DNA of 64,000 bases from Thermoanaerobaculia bacterium. Lineage in GTDB: Bacteria; Acidobacteriota; Thermoanaerobaculia; UBA5066. The position numbers were made by a program, and so were the translations under genes. The notes under the pieces are model-generated. The model was not told where the DNA came from and ran no database searches. It saw only the letters and a list, made by a program, of their open reading frames with translations. Positions within the stretch are counted from its first letter, which is position 1. Every line of letters starts with the position of its first letter. Below are positions 7,682 to 64,000 of this stretch, piece after piece. The DNA lies in NCBI GenBank assembly GCA_963719225.1, contig CAVRAY010000001.1, positions 2,240,001 through 2,304,000 on the forward strand. The letters run 5' to 3'.

Positions 7682-9172
7682 GTGGCGCGTTTCACGGAGC
7701 TCGTCGACCTCGCTTCTTCGCGCGTCGGCGGAGCCGTCCTTTTCGCGAACGACGATTTCTTCGCGCCGAAGGAGAACCTCCTCGAGCCGGAAGCGCCCGT
7801 CTTCCTGCCCGACCGTTACACGGACCGCGGCAAGTGGATGGACGGCTGGGAGAGCCGGCGACGGCGCACGCCGGGCCACGATTTCTGCGTCGTCAGGCTC
7901 GGCCTGAGAGGCGTCGTCCATGGAGTGGACGTGGACACGAGCCACTTCACGGGCAACTTTCCGGAGGCGGCGTCGCTCGACGCGACCGACGCGCCGGAAG
8001 GGACGCCGCTCGAGGAGCTCGGGAGCGGAGACGTTCCCTGGATCGAGATCCTCCCCCGCTCGGCCCTCCGGGGAGACACCCGAAACCTGCTTCCCGTCTC
8101 GAGCCGAAGGCCGTTTTCACACGTGCGCCTCGCCATCCATCCCGACGGCGGCGTGGCGCGCCTTCGTGTGCACGGCGAAGTCGTGCCCGACTGGAAGACG
8201 CTCTCGGCCCGGAGAGAGGCCGTCGACCTCTGCGCGCTCGAAAACGGGGGGCTCGTTCTCGCTTCGAGCGACAGCTTCTTCGGCTCGCACCAGAGCCTCC
8301 TGATGCCGGGACCCGCTTCCGGAATGAAGGACGGGTGGGAGACGAAGCGTAGCCGCCGGCCGGGTTTCGACTGGGTCGTCGTCCGGCTCGGGACGCGGGG
8401 CAGCATCGCTCGCGCCGTCGTGGACACGAGTCACTTCAAAGGCAACTTCCCCGATCGCGCCTCGCTCGAGATCTGCGACGCTCCCCTGGCGACCGTCGAG
8501 ACGCTGGCCGATTCGAAAAGCGTCTGGCAGCCCGTGCTGCCGGAGACGCCGCTCGCCGCCGACACCGTGCACTCCTTCGAGAAGGAGCTCTTTCCGCACG
8601 CGCCGGGCACCCACGTTCGCCTGCGCATCTACCCCGACGGCGGCGTGAGCCGGCTGCGTCTCTACGGCGCCCCGCGGCTTCCAGAGGCGGTCGCGCGATT
8701 GAACGCCGCATCTCGCGAGGACGTCCTCACAAAGCTAGCCTCGTTCTGCGGGTCGCGGCGCTTTTCTTCGAAGGTGGAAGAAGGAAGACCCTATTGGAGT
8801 TACCTCGAGCTACTGCGGGCCGTCGATTCCGCCTTCGAAGAACTCCTCCCGGAGGACTGGCTCGAGGCGTTTCGCGCCCACCCCCGCATCGGCGACCGGG
8901 GCGCCGCGGGGAGCGCGGCGTCGGAGCAGGCCGCGGCGCTCGTGGCGGCGCCCGCGGTCCTCGAGCGCCTCCGACTCGCTAACGCGGAATACGAGAAGCG
9001 GTTCGGCCATCTTTTCATCGTCTGCGCCTCGGGCCGGCCGGCCGACGCGCTCCTCGCGAACCTCGAGGAGCGGCTCGCGAATCCTCCCCCGGTCGAGCTC
9101 GGAATCGCGGCGGAAGAACAGCGGAAGATCACGCGGCTGAGAGTCGAGAAGTTTCTCGCGGAGGGCGCATGA
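7682..9172 (+). CDS. alc: Bifunctional allantoicase / OHCU decarboxylase fusion
   Basis: Two allantoicase repeats (ANDDFFA, DGWESRRRR, HFTGNFP, PDGGVARLRVHG; DGWETKRSR, PDGGVSRLRLYG) plus C-terminal UraD domain (AHPRIG, SEQ, NAEYEKRFG.FIVCA, EQRKITRLR). Confidence 0.9.
   Translation: MARFTELVDLASSRVGGAVLFANDDFFAPKENLLEPEAPVFLPDRYTDRGKWMDGWESRRRRTPGHDFCVVRLGLRGVVHGVDVDTSHFTGNFPEAASLDATDAPEGTPLEELGSGDVPWIEILPRSALRGDTRNLLPVSSRRPFSHVRLAIHPDGGVARLRVHGEVVPDWKTLSARREAVDLCALENGGLVLASSDSFFGSHQSLLMPGPASGMKDGWETKRSRRPGFDWVVVRLGTRGSIARAVVDTSHFKGNFPDRASLEICDAPLATVETLADSKSVWQPVLPETPLAADTVHSFEKELFPHAPGTHVRLRIYPDGGVSRLRLYGAPRLPEAVARLNAASREDVLTKLASFCGSRRFSSKVEEGRPYWSYLELLRAVDSAFEELLPEDWLEAFRAHPRIGDRGAAGSAASEQAAALVAAPAVLERLRLANAEYEKRFGHLFIVCASGRPADALLANLEERLANPPPVELGIAAEEQRKITRLRVEKFLAEGA
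8755..8850. repeat. Outward-facing pair of TTCGAAGAA motifs inside alc-uraD
   Basis: TTCTTCGAA at 8764-8772 (minus copy) and TTCGAAGAA at 8834-8842 (plus copy). Confidence 0.55.
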
Positions 9173-9600
9173 GCCACACGCGTTCGCCGATCACCACGCA
9201 TGTCCTGGACCTCGCGACGGGGAGACCGAGACCGGGGATTCGGATTCTTCTTAGAGTGAAAGAGAGCGACCGCACGGGCGGGACGAAGAAGCGGGCAGGC
9301 GGGGCGGCGGGTGTCGGCGCGACCTGGCGCGAAATCGGCAGGGGCGTCACGGACGCCGACGGCCGCGTGGAGAATCTGCTTCCGGCCGCAGCACGAATCG
9401 AGCCGGGCACCTACTCCCTCACCTTCGACATCGGCGCGAAGCGCTCTCCCTCTTCCCCTTCTAAGAAATCCCCCTCTTCTTCTCTTTCTTCATTCTTTCC
9501 CGAAATCACCATCACGTTCGTGATCAGCGACCCCTCCGCGCATTACCACGTCCCGCTGCTGCTCTCGCCCTTCGGATACTCCACCTACCGGGGCAGCTGA
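9169..9600 (+). CDS. uraH: 5-hydroxyisourate hydrolase (transthyretin-like) carrying two in-frame low-complexity insertions
   Basis: ITTHVLD...G.P, TDADGR, FFPEI.I.F, HYHVPLLLSPFGYSTYRGS C-terminus. Confidence 0.95.
   Translation: MSHTRSPITTHVLDLATGRPRPGIRILLRVKESDRTGGTKKRAGGAAGVGATWREIGRGVTDADGRVENLLPAAARIEPGTYSLTFDIGAKRSPSSPSKKSPSSSLSSFFPEITITFVISDPSAHYHVPLLLSPFGYSTYRGS
9239..9495. repeat. Outward-facing pair of (T/C)TCTAAGAA motifs inside uraH
   Basis: 9248-9256 minus copy and 9459-9467 plus copy; the reverse complement of 9239-9255 is identical to 11351-11367 (TCTAAGAAGAATCCGAA). Confidence 0.7.
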
Positions 9601-61582: not shown

Positions 61583-64000
61583 CGAGCCCCCTCCACAAGA
61601 AAAAGATGGGATGACATGCGGCGGCATGCGTACGCGTAGCTCTTGAGGTCGCCGCTGAAGACGAACGGCCCGACGTCCAGGACTCCAGTCAGGTCGGCGG
61701 GGCCGAGCGTGCGCATCGGTTCGCGCCGGCCCGTTGCGATCTCGAGCCTCTCGATGCGGGCGGGAACCTCCCCGCTGCGCGAGACGAGCATCGAACGGCC
61801 GTCTGGGCTCCACCGGATGACCTTGTCTTCGGGAGTCGCGCCCGCGACGGGCCGAGGCTCGCCTCCGTCGACTGGATAGAGGACGAGAGCGCCGCCGCTC
61901 GCCTTCACGAGGAGCAGCTGGCCGTCCGGCGACACGAACCCCTGGCTCGTTCCCTCCGGCGTCACGGGGCGGGGCTTGCCCGCTGCGACGTCCTGCACGA
62001 AGCACCGGACGGCCTTTCCCTCCTGGTGGCCGCAAACGACGATCCTCTTCCCGTCCGGGAAGAACTGCGCCCACTCGTAGCCGACGAGTCCTCCCCGCTC
62101 GAACTTGAGAGGCTCGCCAGCGCCGGTGGGATAGAGCACGAGCTGAGGGGGCGTCGTGAAAATGACGGCGAGCGCCCACTTCCCGTCACGGGACAGGTCG
62201 TTCGCGGCGCCTTCCCCGAGGCGGACGACCGGCGACCCGTCCGTCTGGCGCAGGCACACCGCGTAGTTCACGCCGACGCTCCCGCTCTCTTCCGAAAAGA
62301 GGAGCGTCCTGCCGTCTGAACTCAGAGCCGACGGGTCGGACAGGTCCAGCCACGAGAGGTCGCGCTCCCGAGTCTGGCCCGGCGCGAGGACCGGCATCTC
62401 GCGGAAGAAATCGTCCCGCGTCGTGAGCCAGCGCCCGTCCGACCGGACGTCGTGGATCGTGAGGCCTCCGGCGCTCTCGAGCGCGACTCGCCGCGTGCCC
62501 GCGAGGGTGACTCCGTAGACGCGGAAGTTGTTGTAGGCGTTTCCCGCGGAGAACATGACCTCGTCTCCCGACGGGGACCAGGCCAGTCCCTCCTCGCCCC
62601 AGTAGCCTTCCGAGAGGATCGTCTTCTTCCCGGCGAGGTCCACGACGACGACTTCTCCGCGGTCGTCGAACCGGAACGGATGCTGGAAGAAAGCGATCCG
62701 GTCCCCGCGCGGAGAGAACCGGGGATTGCTGAAGTAGCCGCCCGTCTCGGCGAGGACCTTGCCGGTCGGGTACTCCAGACGGTCCTTGCCCCCGAAGTCC
62801 CGGATCAACGCCAGGTTCGCGCCGTCGGGGGACCAGTCGGCCTCGCGCACACCGTCGAGGACGTCCCTCGGCGCGCCGCCCTCCAGCGGCATCCGCGCGA
62901 GGGTGCCTTCATAGAGGCTGTGACCCTTGTACCGGACGCGGGTGAGCACCGCCAGCTCTCCCTTCGATGAAATCGAAAGCAGGTGTCCGGCGAGCAGGGA
63001 GCGCGGGCTCGCGCCCGGGTAGTCCGCTCGAAGCGAGAAGATCTCCGGCGTGTTCCCGGACGGGGCCGCGCTATAGACGACCGTCTTTCCGTCCGGGGCG
63101 AGCCGGGCGTTGAAGATCGGCTCCTGCCGAAACGTGAGCTGCGCGAAGGACGGGACGGCGACGATCGAGCGCTTTCCCTTCCACAGCCCGACGCCAAACG
63201 ACGCCGCGGCAGCGAGGACGCCGACTGCAATCGCGGCGGCGGGAACCCAGCGACGGACGCTCCGCGTCGACGCAAGCGCGGCGGCCCGGCCGGACGCGGA
63301 GCTCCCGCCCAGCGCTTCGAGGTCGTACGCGAGGTCGCGAGCCGACTGGAACCGTTCCGCCGGGTTCTTCTCGAGGCAATGCCGGACGAGTCGGTCGAGC
63401 TCGGGCGGGATTTTCGCGCCCGAGACGTCCGGGTCGGGCGGCTCCTCCTTGAGGATCGCGTTCATCGTCTCGATCGCCGAGTCGCCCTTGAACGCGCGCC
63501 GGCCCGTCAGCATCTCGAAAAGGACGCAGCCGAACGCGAAGATGTCCGACCGGGCGTCGGCCGGCAGCCCTCTCACCTGCTCGGGCGCCATGTACCCGAC
63601 GGTCCCGAGGAGCGTCCCGGGATCCGTGGCCTTCGCGAGCGTCGGCGAGTTCGTGTCCTCGCCGGCCGTGACCGCGCGTTGCTTCGCGAGACCGAAGTCC
63701 AGGATCTTCGCGCGTCCGTCCTTCGTGAGGACGACGTTTTCGGGCTTGAGGTCCCTGTGAACGATTCCGCTCTCATGCGCCGCCGCGAGGCCGCGCGCGA
63801 TCTGCGCTCCGAGCTCCACGGCCTTGCGCAGAGGCAGGGCCCCCGCGGTGATCCGCTCGCGGAGCGTCTCCCCGTCCACGAGCTCCATCACGAGGAGGTG
63901 CCGGGGAGGAGAACCGGGGATTTCTTCGATTGAATAGATCGCCGCAATGTTCGGATGGTTCAGTGCCGCGACCAGCTTCGCTTCTCGCTCGAAGCGCGCC
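61579..64000 (-). CDS. Ser/Thr kinase + TM + beta-propeller (array copy 1; 5' end outside window)
   Basis: Reading frame continues past 63891 to the window end ([25 protein letters not shown]); [22 protein letters not shown] repeats. Confidence 0.93.

Follow-up and report, generated by a model that had tools for sequence, protein, structure and literature searches.

A dispersed DNA word within unrelated genes

The 64,000-nucleotide stretch of a Thermoanaerobaculia genome analyzed here, hereafter called the window, spans positions 2240001 to 2304000 of contig C1 in assembly G000, which comprises two contigs (C1 and C2) totaling 4.75 Mb with a GC content of 68%. Pfam assignments for its genes include a fusion of allantoicase and OHCU decarboxylase, an HIUase (uraH), a DUF6986 protein, a TPR membrane protein, and three Ser/Thr kinases with PD40 domains. 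Embedded in these genes are copies of a short DNA word with the core TTCKAAGAA, and each copy, together with its flanks, is called an arm. We describe this element as a short dispersed DNA word that is under pressure at the DNA level and whose paired architecture is unusual.

An initial annotation of the window had located 18 copies by eye and had described their host genes as unrelated. One of its gene labels was mistaken: the gene called CitE-like (11107 to 12315, minus strand) is a full-length DUF6986 gene (E = 2.7e-158) and not CitE. The motif is present at all 18 positions, of which 13 are exact and five, where “a few” had been announced, differ by one base (9248, 12126, 55809, 58777, and 63922). 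The 17-mer said to be common to uraH (9248, minus strand) and the gene at 11350 (plus strand) is likewise visible. With three further copies from a position-weight scan, the window total is 21 (Table 1).

The three kinase genes lie in tandem (53331 to 62179, minus strand), and each carries PD40 beta-propeller repeats along with the same four to five arm-like sites. Genome-wide, about a dozen proteins have a pair of arms spaced by 93 nt at the N-terminal position seen in the confirmed kinases; these are presumed kinase paralogs, three of them checked by Pfam. The earlier caution that the kinase pairs are not independent, because their genes are paralogous, was well placed.

The word is enriched at the level of DNA

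Exact copies of TTCKAAGAA number 13 in the window, versus 0.65 ± 0.85 (maximum of 3) when its dinucleotides are shuffled 100 times. The whole G000 genome contains 525, split between the strands as 262 and 263. Under a maximal-order Markov model, no 8-mers of this genome are more over-represented than CCTTCTAA and AGAAATCT. Genes were called with a crude open reading frame (ORF) caller based on GC content at third codon positions, which covers 75% of G000. Only the genes checked by Pfam are firmer than this, and all counts given as intergenic are upper bounds that include uncalled genes.

The initial annotation had staked its claim in advance on an excess over a codon-preserving shuffle, and such an excess is evident in the 3.55 Mb of called coding sequence. 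TTCKAAGAA occurs there 270 times, versus 51.6 ± 6.5 when synonymous codons are shuffled and 31.4 ± 4.6 when codon order is shuffled. The canonical core TTCTAAGAA is found 112 times, versus 2.4 and 0.9 in the same two shuffles (about 47-fold over the synonymous shuffle), and the 11-mer CCTTCTAAGAA is found 63 times, versus 0.8 and 0.0. About half of all copies lie outside called genes, and those inside genes use all six frames, as the varied peptides read from the window copies had implied.

The probability that the word merely reflects chance or a bias in codons or amino acids, with FEE, FFE, or SKK as ordinary coding words, is negligible. TTC is indeed the main Phe codon (89%), and part of the TTCGAAGAA matches are poorly flanked coding words of the FEE/FFE kind, perhaps including the copy at 20681. 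The bulk of the copies cannot be explained in this manner, given the codon-aware expectation of 2.4, the use of six frames, the half of copies that lie outside called genes, a consensus that runs well beyond the core, and the absence of the word from related genera of equal GC content.

The initial annotation had also remarked on rare codons in the motif. Indeed, TTA accounts for 0.3% and CTA for 0.8% of Leu codons in G000, AGA for 3.2% of Arg, AAA for 14.6% of Lys, and TCT for 6% of Ser. The windows occupied by arms make up 0.4% of codons yet contain 14.6% of all TTA codons in called genes.

No Rfam family reaches its gathering score in the window. The initial annotation had stated that it knew of no description of the motif in Acidobacteriota, and a limited full-text literature search found no description of the word in bacteria, with the listed matches to TTCTAAGAA being eukaryotic STAT sites and primers, and a search for “Thermoanaerobaculia” together with palindromic repeats found nothing related.

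Anatomy of an arm and its variable base

An arm consists of an inner flank of about 12 nt, the core TTCNAAGAA, whose canonical form is TTCTAAGAA, and a G-poor pyrimidine tail. Among aligned copies, about 12 bases are informative on one side of the core (consensus CCYTTMACC), and the 9-bp core is followed by A, A/T, and C/T before the tail begins. The consensus extends over approximately 38 to 55 nt, and the arm strand is depleted of G over about 55 nt. Tails in G000 have a median length of 12.5 nt (90th percentile 33, maximum 72), versus a median of 0 at random positions, and are equal on both strands.

A weight-matrix scan with a threshold of at least 22 bits identifies 698 arms in G000, of which 643 are on C1 and 55 are on the 872 kb of C2. 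The most common cores are TTCTAAGAA (249 arms), TTCGAAGAA (131), TTCAAAGAA (61), TTCTAAGCA (37), and TTCCAAGAA (36).

The fourth base of the core had originally been written as either G or T. Both bases do occur, but the choice between them is not free. T yields a stop codon in two frames (TAA in the sense orientation, TAG on the other strand), and there the exact TTCKAAGAA copies are exclusively G copies, most of which have good arm flanks (36 of 53 and 25 of 36). In the remaining frames, the G copies are mostly poorly flanked (good flanks in 6 of 28, 1 of 10, 3 of 7, and 6 of 24) and are ordinary coding words. Thus, the G/T variability of this position is stop-codon avoidance, wherein the G variant is used because T would create a stop codon. 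The right arm of uraH illustrates the point, as it reads T-TCT-AAG-AA in G000 and, shifted by an indel, TTC-GAA-GAG in G007, the closest genome compared. In sua5, where the fourth base of the core is the third base of a Ser codon, all four bases are found among species.

Arms form outward-facing pairs

The six outward-facing pairs described previously for the window have the reported spacings of 70, 211, 364, 93, 93, and 93 nt, and such pairs are a genome-wide rule rather than a local curiosity. Fully 412 of the 698 arms (59%) form 206 pairs in which a minus-strand arm precedes a plus-strand arm (“-+”) less than 400 nt away. Among adjacent arms less than 1 kb apart, 210 are arranged “-+”, 45 “--”, 40 “++”, and 34 “+-”, with just two of the “+-” pairs closer than 200 nt. 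The typical range of spacings is approximately 60 to 350 bp (5th percentile 60 nt; quartiles 81, 106, and 156; 95th percentile 257), with the main onset at 70 nt. Neither a 10.5-nt phasing (power of 0.3 versus a null 95% maximum of 7.4) nor a 3-nt periodicity is evident in these spacings.

The DNA enclosed by a pair is specific to its locus, has a GC content of 71%, and folds no better than its shuffles (median z of 0.05). A comparison of 89 interiors yielded six non-self match rows, comprising three reciprocal pairs and one one-way match. Two of these pairs are among kinase paralogs and the rest are 15 to 22 nt long, with no other shared or captured segment. Similarity between arms is no greater within a pair than between pairs, for inner flanks (p = 0.39) and for tails (p = 0.23) alike. 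The idea that each pair is a private hairpin was rejected, as ungapped and gapped comparisons of arms gave no excess within pairs and the interior shows no folding beyond that of shuffles.

When 25-nt tails are included, a pair folds above its shuffles (median z of -1.8), and 43 of 60 predicted structures show the two cores base-paired to each other over 7 to 9 of their 9 bases. A pair can fold in this manner because all arms share one consensus. This folding is nonetheless what an RNA-level element would show, wherein the arms form a stem and the C/U tail serves as a U-rich tract or a Rho-loading site of a terminator, processing site, or stabilizer. Whichever strand is considered, the “-+” rule would put the pyrimidine tail on the 3′ side of the stem, and the depletion of G along the arm strand would also be fitting. 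However, solo arms in genes show no transcription polarity (44 sense, 50 antisense), and complementarity within pairs is no higher than between them. It is a specific sequence that is conserved rather than mere complementarity, and neither the folding of the interior nor Rfam lends support.

The gene context of the pairs is also not that of a terminator. There are 87 of the 206 pairs lying wholly within one called ORF, which include those in housekeeping genes, and another 38 with one arm in an ORF. The others occupy gaps between called genes that are tandem (44), convergent (18), or divergent (19), matching a background of 795, 284, and 356 such gaps, respectively. A preference for convergent gene ends, hinted at by exact-core sites, was not confirmed for pairs against this background and was discarded. 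Given the absence of both polarity and a gene-end preference, we consider an RNA element quite improbable.

Distribution among genomes

The word is a sharp taxonomic marker, with tens to hundreds of copies in each genome of the genus versus 0 to 1 in most relatives. The 11-mer CCTTCTAAGAA occurs 51 to 267 times in 18 of 18 genomes of the same genus (up to 11 times for the reversed control) and 0 to 1 times in 12 genomes from seven other genera of the order; the result is the same for the ten genomes that remain when G019 and G024 are left out. The 14-mer CACCTTCTAAGAAA occurs 7 to 100 times in 26 of 26 genomes of the genus (control 0) and 2 to 8 times in 5 of 8 genomes of one sister genus, and is found in none of 26 genomes from eight other genera of the family. 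Within the sister genus, G050 has 45 cores versus 11 for the control and shows typical “-+” pairs, G046, G054, and G052 have 6, 9, and 2 cores, and two pairs display the full architecture with tails of 60 to 80 nt. The genes beside the few sites of its low-copy genomes are ordinary housekeeping genes. One pair downstream of mgsA is kept between two sister-genus genomes and is degenerate or absent in G000.

An 18-mer arm scan of one genome per prokaryotic species returned at least 117 stretches (about 410 estimated). Among the first 80 listed, almost all are metagenome-assembled genomes (MAGs) titled Thermoanaerobaculia or Acidobacteriota, with single matches in AT-rich taxa. The hosts of the word are uncultured soil and sediment Acidobacteriota, of the class Thermoanaerobaculia according to record titles. 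No comparable alternative “dialect” of the word was found in 200 kb each of G021 and G022, which represent two other genera. A phage origin was considered and dismissed: 92 viral contigs have one match each, at low-GC loci (median 0.38, maximum 0.52), which were taken as chance.

Arms in host proteins

Outside the window, pairs are found in genes for ZnuA, a heptosyltransferase, MnmA, a GHMP kinase, a uracil-DNA glycosylase family protein, HisA, ChrA, Sua5/TsaC (two pairs), TrpC-TrpF, and a GlmU-like protein. In HIUase, HisA, and Sua5, the arms lie in loops or linkers. Alignments show that arms often overlie existing codons and are not always inserted. In an alignment with a solved HisA, the left arm of hisA, which encodes EDFLE (GAA GAT TTC TTA GAA), falls on LERALE with a difference of 1 amino acid, and the right arm falls on WTRKA, with 7 additional amino acids arising from the poly-Ser tail only. 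The YrdC-type domain of Sua5, which contains both arms of the first pair, has 171 amino acids versus 176 profile positions. From a comparison with PknB, the kinase arms presumably add no length. In uraH, some length is added: compared with arm-less orthologs, the protein of G000 is longer by about 16 residues next to the left arm and by 8 to 13 next to the right, and the arms enclose about 150 nt of conserved HIUase coding sequence. These orthologs come from G004 (same genus) and from G023 and G019 (other genera), and the conclusion holds on G004 and G023 alone. For annotators, arms explain odd poly-Ser and poly-Glu/Lys inserts and islands of rare codons.

Conservation and turnover of arms

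The pair in hisA is found in all 18 genomes of the genus in which it is readable. Its right core is exact in 16 of these, and its left core is exact in 12 and one to two bases off in the other six. Its tails range from about 5 to more than 100 nt, and the whole pair is duplicated in G011. In sua5, the right arm of the first pair retains TTCNAAGAA in 14 of 16 genomes and the right core of the second pair is exact in 13 of 16. The left arm of that second pair displays all stages between CTT AGA AAG and either CTC CGA AAG or CTG CGT ACC, and the variable linker of the gene carries extra arms in five genomes. The words in hisA and sua5 are therefore conserved across 16 to 18 species through the codons TTA, CTA, AGA, AAA, and TCT, while neighboring synonymous sites vary. 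At or close to the pyrimidine tails, translated matches (tblastn) to hisA and sua5 are interrupted in several MAGs, either by a split or by stop codons, which reflects real frameshifts or assembly errors in these simple repeats.

Inverted pairs that share one consensus and flank segments of 60 to 350 bp might also be invertons, in which the arms are the repeats used by a master invertase for phase variation or recoding. This is very improbable: the segments enclosed in hisA and sua5 are collinear in 18 and 16 genomes, respectively, the hosts are housekeeping enzymes, and inversion in silico leaves 36% of 73 coding pairs free of stop codons versus 61% of 2190 controls.

G007 shares about 88% nucleotide identity with G000 over 328 kb. 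The 486 kb of G000 that were compared contain 123 arms, of which 67 are anchored, 29 lie in unaligned DNA, and 27 lack usable anchors. About 50 of the 67 anchored arms have an orthologous arm of at least 20 bits in G007, and those without mostly coincide with length differences of 47 to 105 nt. At 29 sites free of indels, the identity between the two genomes is 0.93 in the core and 0.80 to 0.87 in the flanks.

Several lineage-specific gains were found. An alignment of four genomes reveals a pair just past a stop codon that is present only in G007. A 17- to 28-nt segment that the three empty genomes also contain is flanked there by about 24 to 35 nt on its left and by about 50 nt on its right. 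A search of G007 for the donor of this pair found no near-identical copy, only generic arm matches of 21 to 44 nt. Directly past another stop codon, where G000 has nothing, G017 carries a block of 107 nt that consists of two cores 37 nt apart with a tail outside each, and G000 carries a 79-nt pair between a Shine-Dalgarno sequence and a start codon. Tandem copies of arms also occur, repeating every 31 or about 80 nt. The block gains have fuzzy junctions, and no duplication of a target site was seen at them. The 107-nt G017 pair marks a hot spot past the stop codon of an ABC permease gene (window positions 19229 to 19239), where G007 has a 1.6-kb insertion with a long ORF.

Such gains are expected if the arms are a nonautonomous mobile repeat, akin to a miniature inverted-repeat transposable element (MITE), a bacterial interspersed mosaic element (BIME), or a doublet of repetitive extragenic palindromic (REP) sequences forming a hairpin (REPIN), wherein an enzyme acting in trans would copy or insert the inverted arms, in some cases to either side of host DNA, and would keep them homogeneous. 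The block gains and losses of 30 to 110 nt, the pair specific to G007, and the tandem duplications are all consistent with this explanation. So are copy numbers that range from 2 to hundreds across related species of two genera, and a strict lower limit on spacing, which would be expected of two ends that have to synapse. Transposons have a minimal length to which this arm spacing can be likened. The rise in arm density toward the replication terminus (ter) and the presence of fewer copies in coding DNA than its share resemble the distribution of mildly harmful insertions.

Other observations do not accord with a mobile repeat. The left arm of hisA and the first pair of sua5 overlie pre-existing codons and add at most 1 amino acid, which insertion cannot do. 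Interiors are unique and are often conserved host coding sequence, an arm resembles its partner no more than it resembles arms of other pairs, and neither a target-site duplication nor a donor copy was seen. Furthermore, arms conserved through rare codons in 16 to 18 species are unlike decaying relics.

A candidate enzyme is also lacking among the families searched. Inspection of the gene list, conducted without a Pfam search, found no transposase-like called gene between long pairs (0.4 to 5 kb), and no transposase adjoins the few sites of low-copy genomes. The initial annotation had proposed looking for co-distributed REP-associated tyrosine transposases (RAYTs), and there is no such co-distribution: the Y1 transposase family of the RAYT type (PF01797) has no match in G000 and is found in 2 of 18 genomes of the genus, and it is common in genera that are free of arms. 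Reverse transcriptases are found in 3 of 19 genomes of the genus (G000 and 2 of 18 others). The sole reverse transcriptase match of G000 lies at the extreme end of a contig (C2, 869298 to 869993). Taken together, we judge the mobile repeat to be a rather unlikely explanation.

Placement on the chromosome

The GC skew of G000 locates the replication origin (ori) near position 0 and ter near 2.08 Mb of C1. A dif-like XerCD site, GATAATATTTATTATGTTAAAT, with a G000-specific arm pair directly next to it, is present at 2,037,574, at the maximum of cumulative GC skew and about 200 kb upstream of the window. Arm density is 1 to 7 per 100 kb in the first 0.6 Mb, 20 to 34 in most bins between 1.1 and 3.1 Mb (with lows of 12 to 19), and 4 to 21 in the last 0.8 Mb. 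At 3.1 Mb, the density drops sharply from 34 to 6 per 100 kb, which could reflect a domain boundary, a rearrangement, or an assembly join. Checks of strand, clustering, and spacing had been proposed in the initial annotation: the strands are equal, the clustering is slight, and the spacing has a minimum of about 60 nt and no phasing.

This distribution evokes a genus-specific architectural protein that binds each palindromic core as a dimer and bridges the two arms over at least 60 bp, with the sites maintained by ordinary selection on the folding of the chromosome or by some terminus-linked process. The 9-bp palindromic core, the strict rule of orientation with its minimum spacing, the lack of transcription polarity, and the conservation at orthologous places are compatible with such sites, as are the density centered on the terminus half with its dif-like site and the sharp boundary at 3.1 Mb. 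The sites matS and those bound by Noc and SlmA also lie inside genes. However, approximately 700 arms that impose rare codons and poly-Ser or poly-Glu tracts on housekeeping enzymes would be a high price for weak selection at each site. The spacings show no 10.5-bp phasing, arms are rapidly gained and lost and are copied in tandem, several sister-genus species hold 2 to 9 cores only, and no candidate protein was identified. We consider architectural sites to be unlikely.

One rRNA match deserves mention. At the 3′ end of the 16S rRNA gene and the beginning of the adjoining spacer (C1, about 905530 to 905556), GGATCACCTCCTTTCTAAGGGATCTC resembles the right-arm consensus TTCACC-TTCTAAG-AAATCT, which may be a coincidence. 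The opposite arm strand resembles a Shine-Dalgarno sequence (AGAAGGTGA).

A DNA-level drive as the favored explanation

The initial annotation had argued that pressure on the DNA overrides protein coding. Four findings uphold this view: the excess over codon shuffles, the use of six frames with the stop-dependent base, the concentration of TTA codons in arms, and the conservation of the word through rare codons across species. Here, pressure on the DNA clearly prevails over the optimization of proteins and codons, and one short word shapes the codon choice and loop sequence of housekeeping enzymes in a whole genus. Some machinery likely reads the DNA itself. Because conserved proteins have changed at the level of codons, rare codons are conserved, and a copy-and-paste signature is lacking (unique interiors, no likeness of arms within pairs, and no donor for a lineage-specific pair), we reasoned that a reader of DNA sequence acting in trans biases the persistence of alleles. 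The explanation we tentatively prefer is a sequence-specific drive at the DNA level, like that of uptake sequences, that would maintain and multiply the word.

In such a drive, a genus-specific protein would recognize the arm as double-stranded DNA. Alleles that match better would be transmitted or retained preferentially, for example through uptake and recombination of DNA from the same genus. Substitution, slippage of tails, and copying of neighboring arms would then add matches at any place where the function of the protein permits. ComEC is encoded in 30 of 31 genomes, outgroups included, which is a necessary but not discriminating component. Two hallmarks of uptake sequences are evident, namely a lineage-specific over-representation on both strands and the use of open frames at weakly conserved residues with avoidance of frames that give stop codons.

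A substantial list of observations weighs against this explanation. Those that concern geometry are the prevalence of “-+” pairs and the 5th-percentile spacing of 60 nt, both unlike uptake sequences, and the need for two inverted arms with a minimum spacing, which uptake drive leaves unexplained. Tight terminator hairpins at gene ends, a further trait of uptake sequences, are not seen, and the gap types of intergenic pairs match their background. The tails are variable and prone to slippage, reach more than 100 nt in other species, and have only a loose analog in the flanks of uptake signal sequences. Tails and block gains alike are not accounted for by uptake, and the block gains of 107 nt in G017 and 79 nt in G000, along with the tandem copies, suit a mobile repeat equally well. 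The same is true of copy numbers that span 2 to several hundred among related species.

Other difficulties relate to numbers and placement. Arms use rare codons rather than the preferred-codon frames of uptake sequences, and at about one per 7 kb they are several-fold sparser than known uptake sequences. The four- to five-fold rise in density from ori to ter is left unexplained. The elements are slightly clustered and not evenly spaced (coefficient of variation of 1.18 versus 0.88 to 1.11 when simulated). Finally, no step in identity between G000 and G007 is seen at arms in what is a weak test (p = 0.34 within genes and 0.10 at gene boundaries).

A new kind of bipartite “self” signal in DNA, consisting of two inverted arms at least about 60 bp apart, read and propagated by a genus-specific machine, seems possible but doubtful. 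The role of this machine could lie in DNA uptake, as a receptor, or in recombination or chromosome folding. If such a signal exists, it would overwrite coding sequence and pay for this with rare codons and low-complexity loops. It would then be the first drive of the uptake-sequence type from outside Proteobacteria, and also the first whose paired geometry is obligatory.

Should an uptake-type drive prove true, systems of this kind would extend to a new phylum. It would also provide a handle for genetics, in the form of DNA that cells accept, and would raise the question of why two arms and a minimum distance are needed. If an enzyme spreads the arms instead, then it places inverted arms around host DNA, which would be a new DNA-manipulating activity.

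Likeness to known systems

Every family considered has at least one tested defining feature that the element lacks. Of the three analogies offered in the initial annotation, the uptake sequence fits best, though not in its pair geometry, the sites of chromosome-organizing proteins are discussed below, and the Rickettsia palindromic element (RPE) fits worst, since several arms overlie codons and add at most 1 amino acid.

For the DNA uptake sequence (DUS) and the uptake signal sequence (USS), two sources describe avoidance of frames that give stop codons and inverted copies that form close terminator hairpins (10.1101/2025.10.24.684340), placement at poorly conserved residues (PMC2817400), and favored use of frames with preferred codons (PMC2817400, “Reading Frame Biases”). 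Arms are alike in being a short, lineage-specific word with hundreds of copies, equal on both strands, in open frames and at weakly conserved residues. They are also alike in frequently occurring as inverted pairs, in having a strong core with weaker one-sided flanks, in being conserved at orthologous places, and in needing no transposase. Arms differ in that pairs lie 60 to 350 bp apart around ordinary DNA instead of forming tight terminator hairpins at gene ends. Further differences are long, slippage-prone tails, rare codons, a density of about 1 per 7 kb versus about 1 per kb, the ori-to-ter gradient, block insertions, tandem copies, and a different phylum.

REPINs number in the hundreds as short repeats, form inverted doublets with a spacer, persist for long periods, and vary in copy number between relatives. 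Arms resemble REP, BIME, and REPIN sequences in all of these respects, with most occurring as inverted doublets. They differ in that G000 has no Y1 transposase or RAYT, one arm by itself forms no hairpin, each spacer is unique, and 87 of 206 pairs lie wholly within called ORFs.

The RPE is an in-frame repeat located in unrelated housekeeping genes that remain intact (PMC10969869), and arms are similar in lying inside unrelated housekeeping genes without destroying them. The RPE, however, is a block of about 150 bp that encodes a conserved peptide, whereas the arm unit is about 40 to 60 nt and is read in six frames. Arms often add almost no length, and they flank host sequence rather than interrupt it. 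MITEs such as Correia and ERIC elements, as outlined in PMC10969869, share with the arms their inverted ends, lengths of 70 to 350 bp, presence or absence as a block, and possible RNA stems. Arm pairs depart from MITEs in having no shared interior, no target-site duplication that was seen, and arms that are conserved rather than decaying, and no partner transposase was found among Y1 and reverse transcriptase families, DDE families not having been searched.

Among the sites of chromosome-organizing proteins, matS, the Noc- and SlmA-binding sites, and parS are palindromic, are tolerated in genes, and are unevenly distributed along the replichore. Arms have the same three properties. They differ in being ten-fold more numerous, in being paired with a rule of orientation and tails, and in their fast turnover.

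Individual sites in the window

The coordinates and contexts of all 21 copies are listed in Table 1.

Table 1. Copies of the word in the window, with strand, score, host, and comparison with other genomes.
Feature	Position	Strand	Score	Host and remarks
Arm TTCGAAGAA	8764..8772	-	26.2	Linker of allantoicase/OHCU-decarboxylase gene; left of pair, spacing 70; orthologous arm in G007
Exact core TTCGAAGAA	8834..8842	+	<16	Flanks poor; possibly coding word (AFEEL)
Arm, core CTCTAAGAA	9248..9256	-		Left arm of uraH pair, spacing 211; present in G006, degenerate in G007, absent from G004, G023, and G019
Arm TTCTAAGAA with CT tail	9459..9467	+	41.4	Right arm of uraH pair; SKKSPSSSLSS
Solo arm TTCTAAGAA	11350..11358	+		DUF6986 gene, antisense; 17-mer common with the 9248 arm; G007 ortholog is TTCCAAGAA
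Weak arm TTCCAAGAA	12126..12134	+	17.6	Identical variant in G007
Arm TTCTAAGAA, long tail	20317..20325	-	40.9	TPR membrane protein loop, read EEKTEDFLRKGKR; loop shorter and K/R-rich in G016, G017, and G007
Core TTCGAAGAA	20681..20689	+		LFYSKKLFF; old, common to 6 species; possibly coding word
Arm TTCGAAGAA	55239..55247	-		Kinase 1
Arm-like TTCCAAGCA	55352..55360	+		Kinase 1; pairs with 55239, spacing 113; position-weight scan
Arm-like CTCGAAGAA	55809..55817	-		Kinase 1
Arm TTCGAAGAA (YSFEEIPASSSSSS)	55920..55928	-		Kinase 1, 93-nt pair
Arm TTCGAAGAA	56013..56021	+		Kinase 1, partner in 93-nt pair; gene strand EEFFEGEE
Arm TTCGAAGAA	57994..58002	-		Kinase 2; paralogous to 55239 arm
Weak arm-like TTCCAAGGA	58113..58121	+	16.2	Kinase 2; position-weight scan
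Arm-like CTCGAAGAG	58570..58578	-		Kinase 2; position-weight scan
Arm TTCGAAGAA	58684..58692	-		Kinase 2, 93-nt pair
Arm TTCAAAGAA	58777..58785	+		Kinase 2, partner in 93-nt pair
Arm TTCGAAGAA	61343..61351	-		Kinase 3, 93-nt pair
Arm TTCTAAGAA	61436..61444	+		Kinase 3, partner in 93-nt pair
Arm-like ATCGAAGAA	63922..63930	-		Further kinase paralog at window edge

The copy at 20681 was at one point taken for a fresh, length-neutral conversion, a proposal that was withdrawn because LFYSKK is present in 6 species and the 7 others may belong to a different orthology group. When window positions 19300 to 21700 are compared with G016, G017, and G007, identity is 86 to 88% upstream of the arm at 20317 and 75 to 82% downstream. 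A recombination breakpoint may lie near this arm, with the downstream part grouping with a different set of species.

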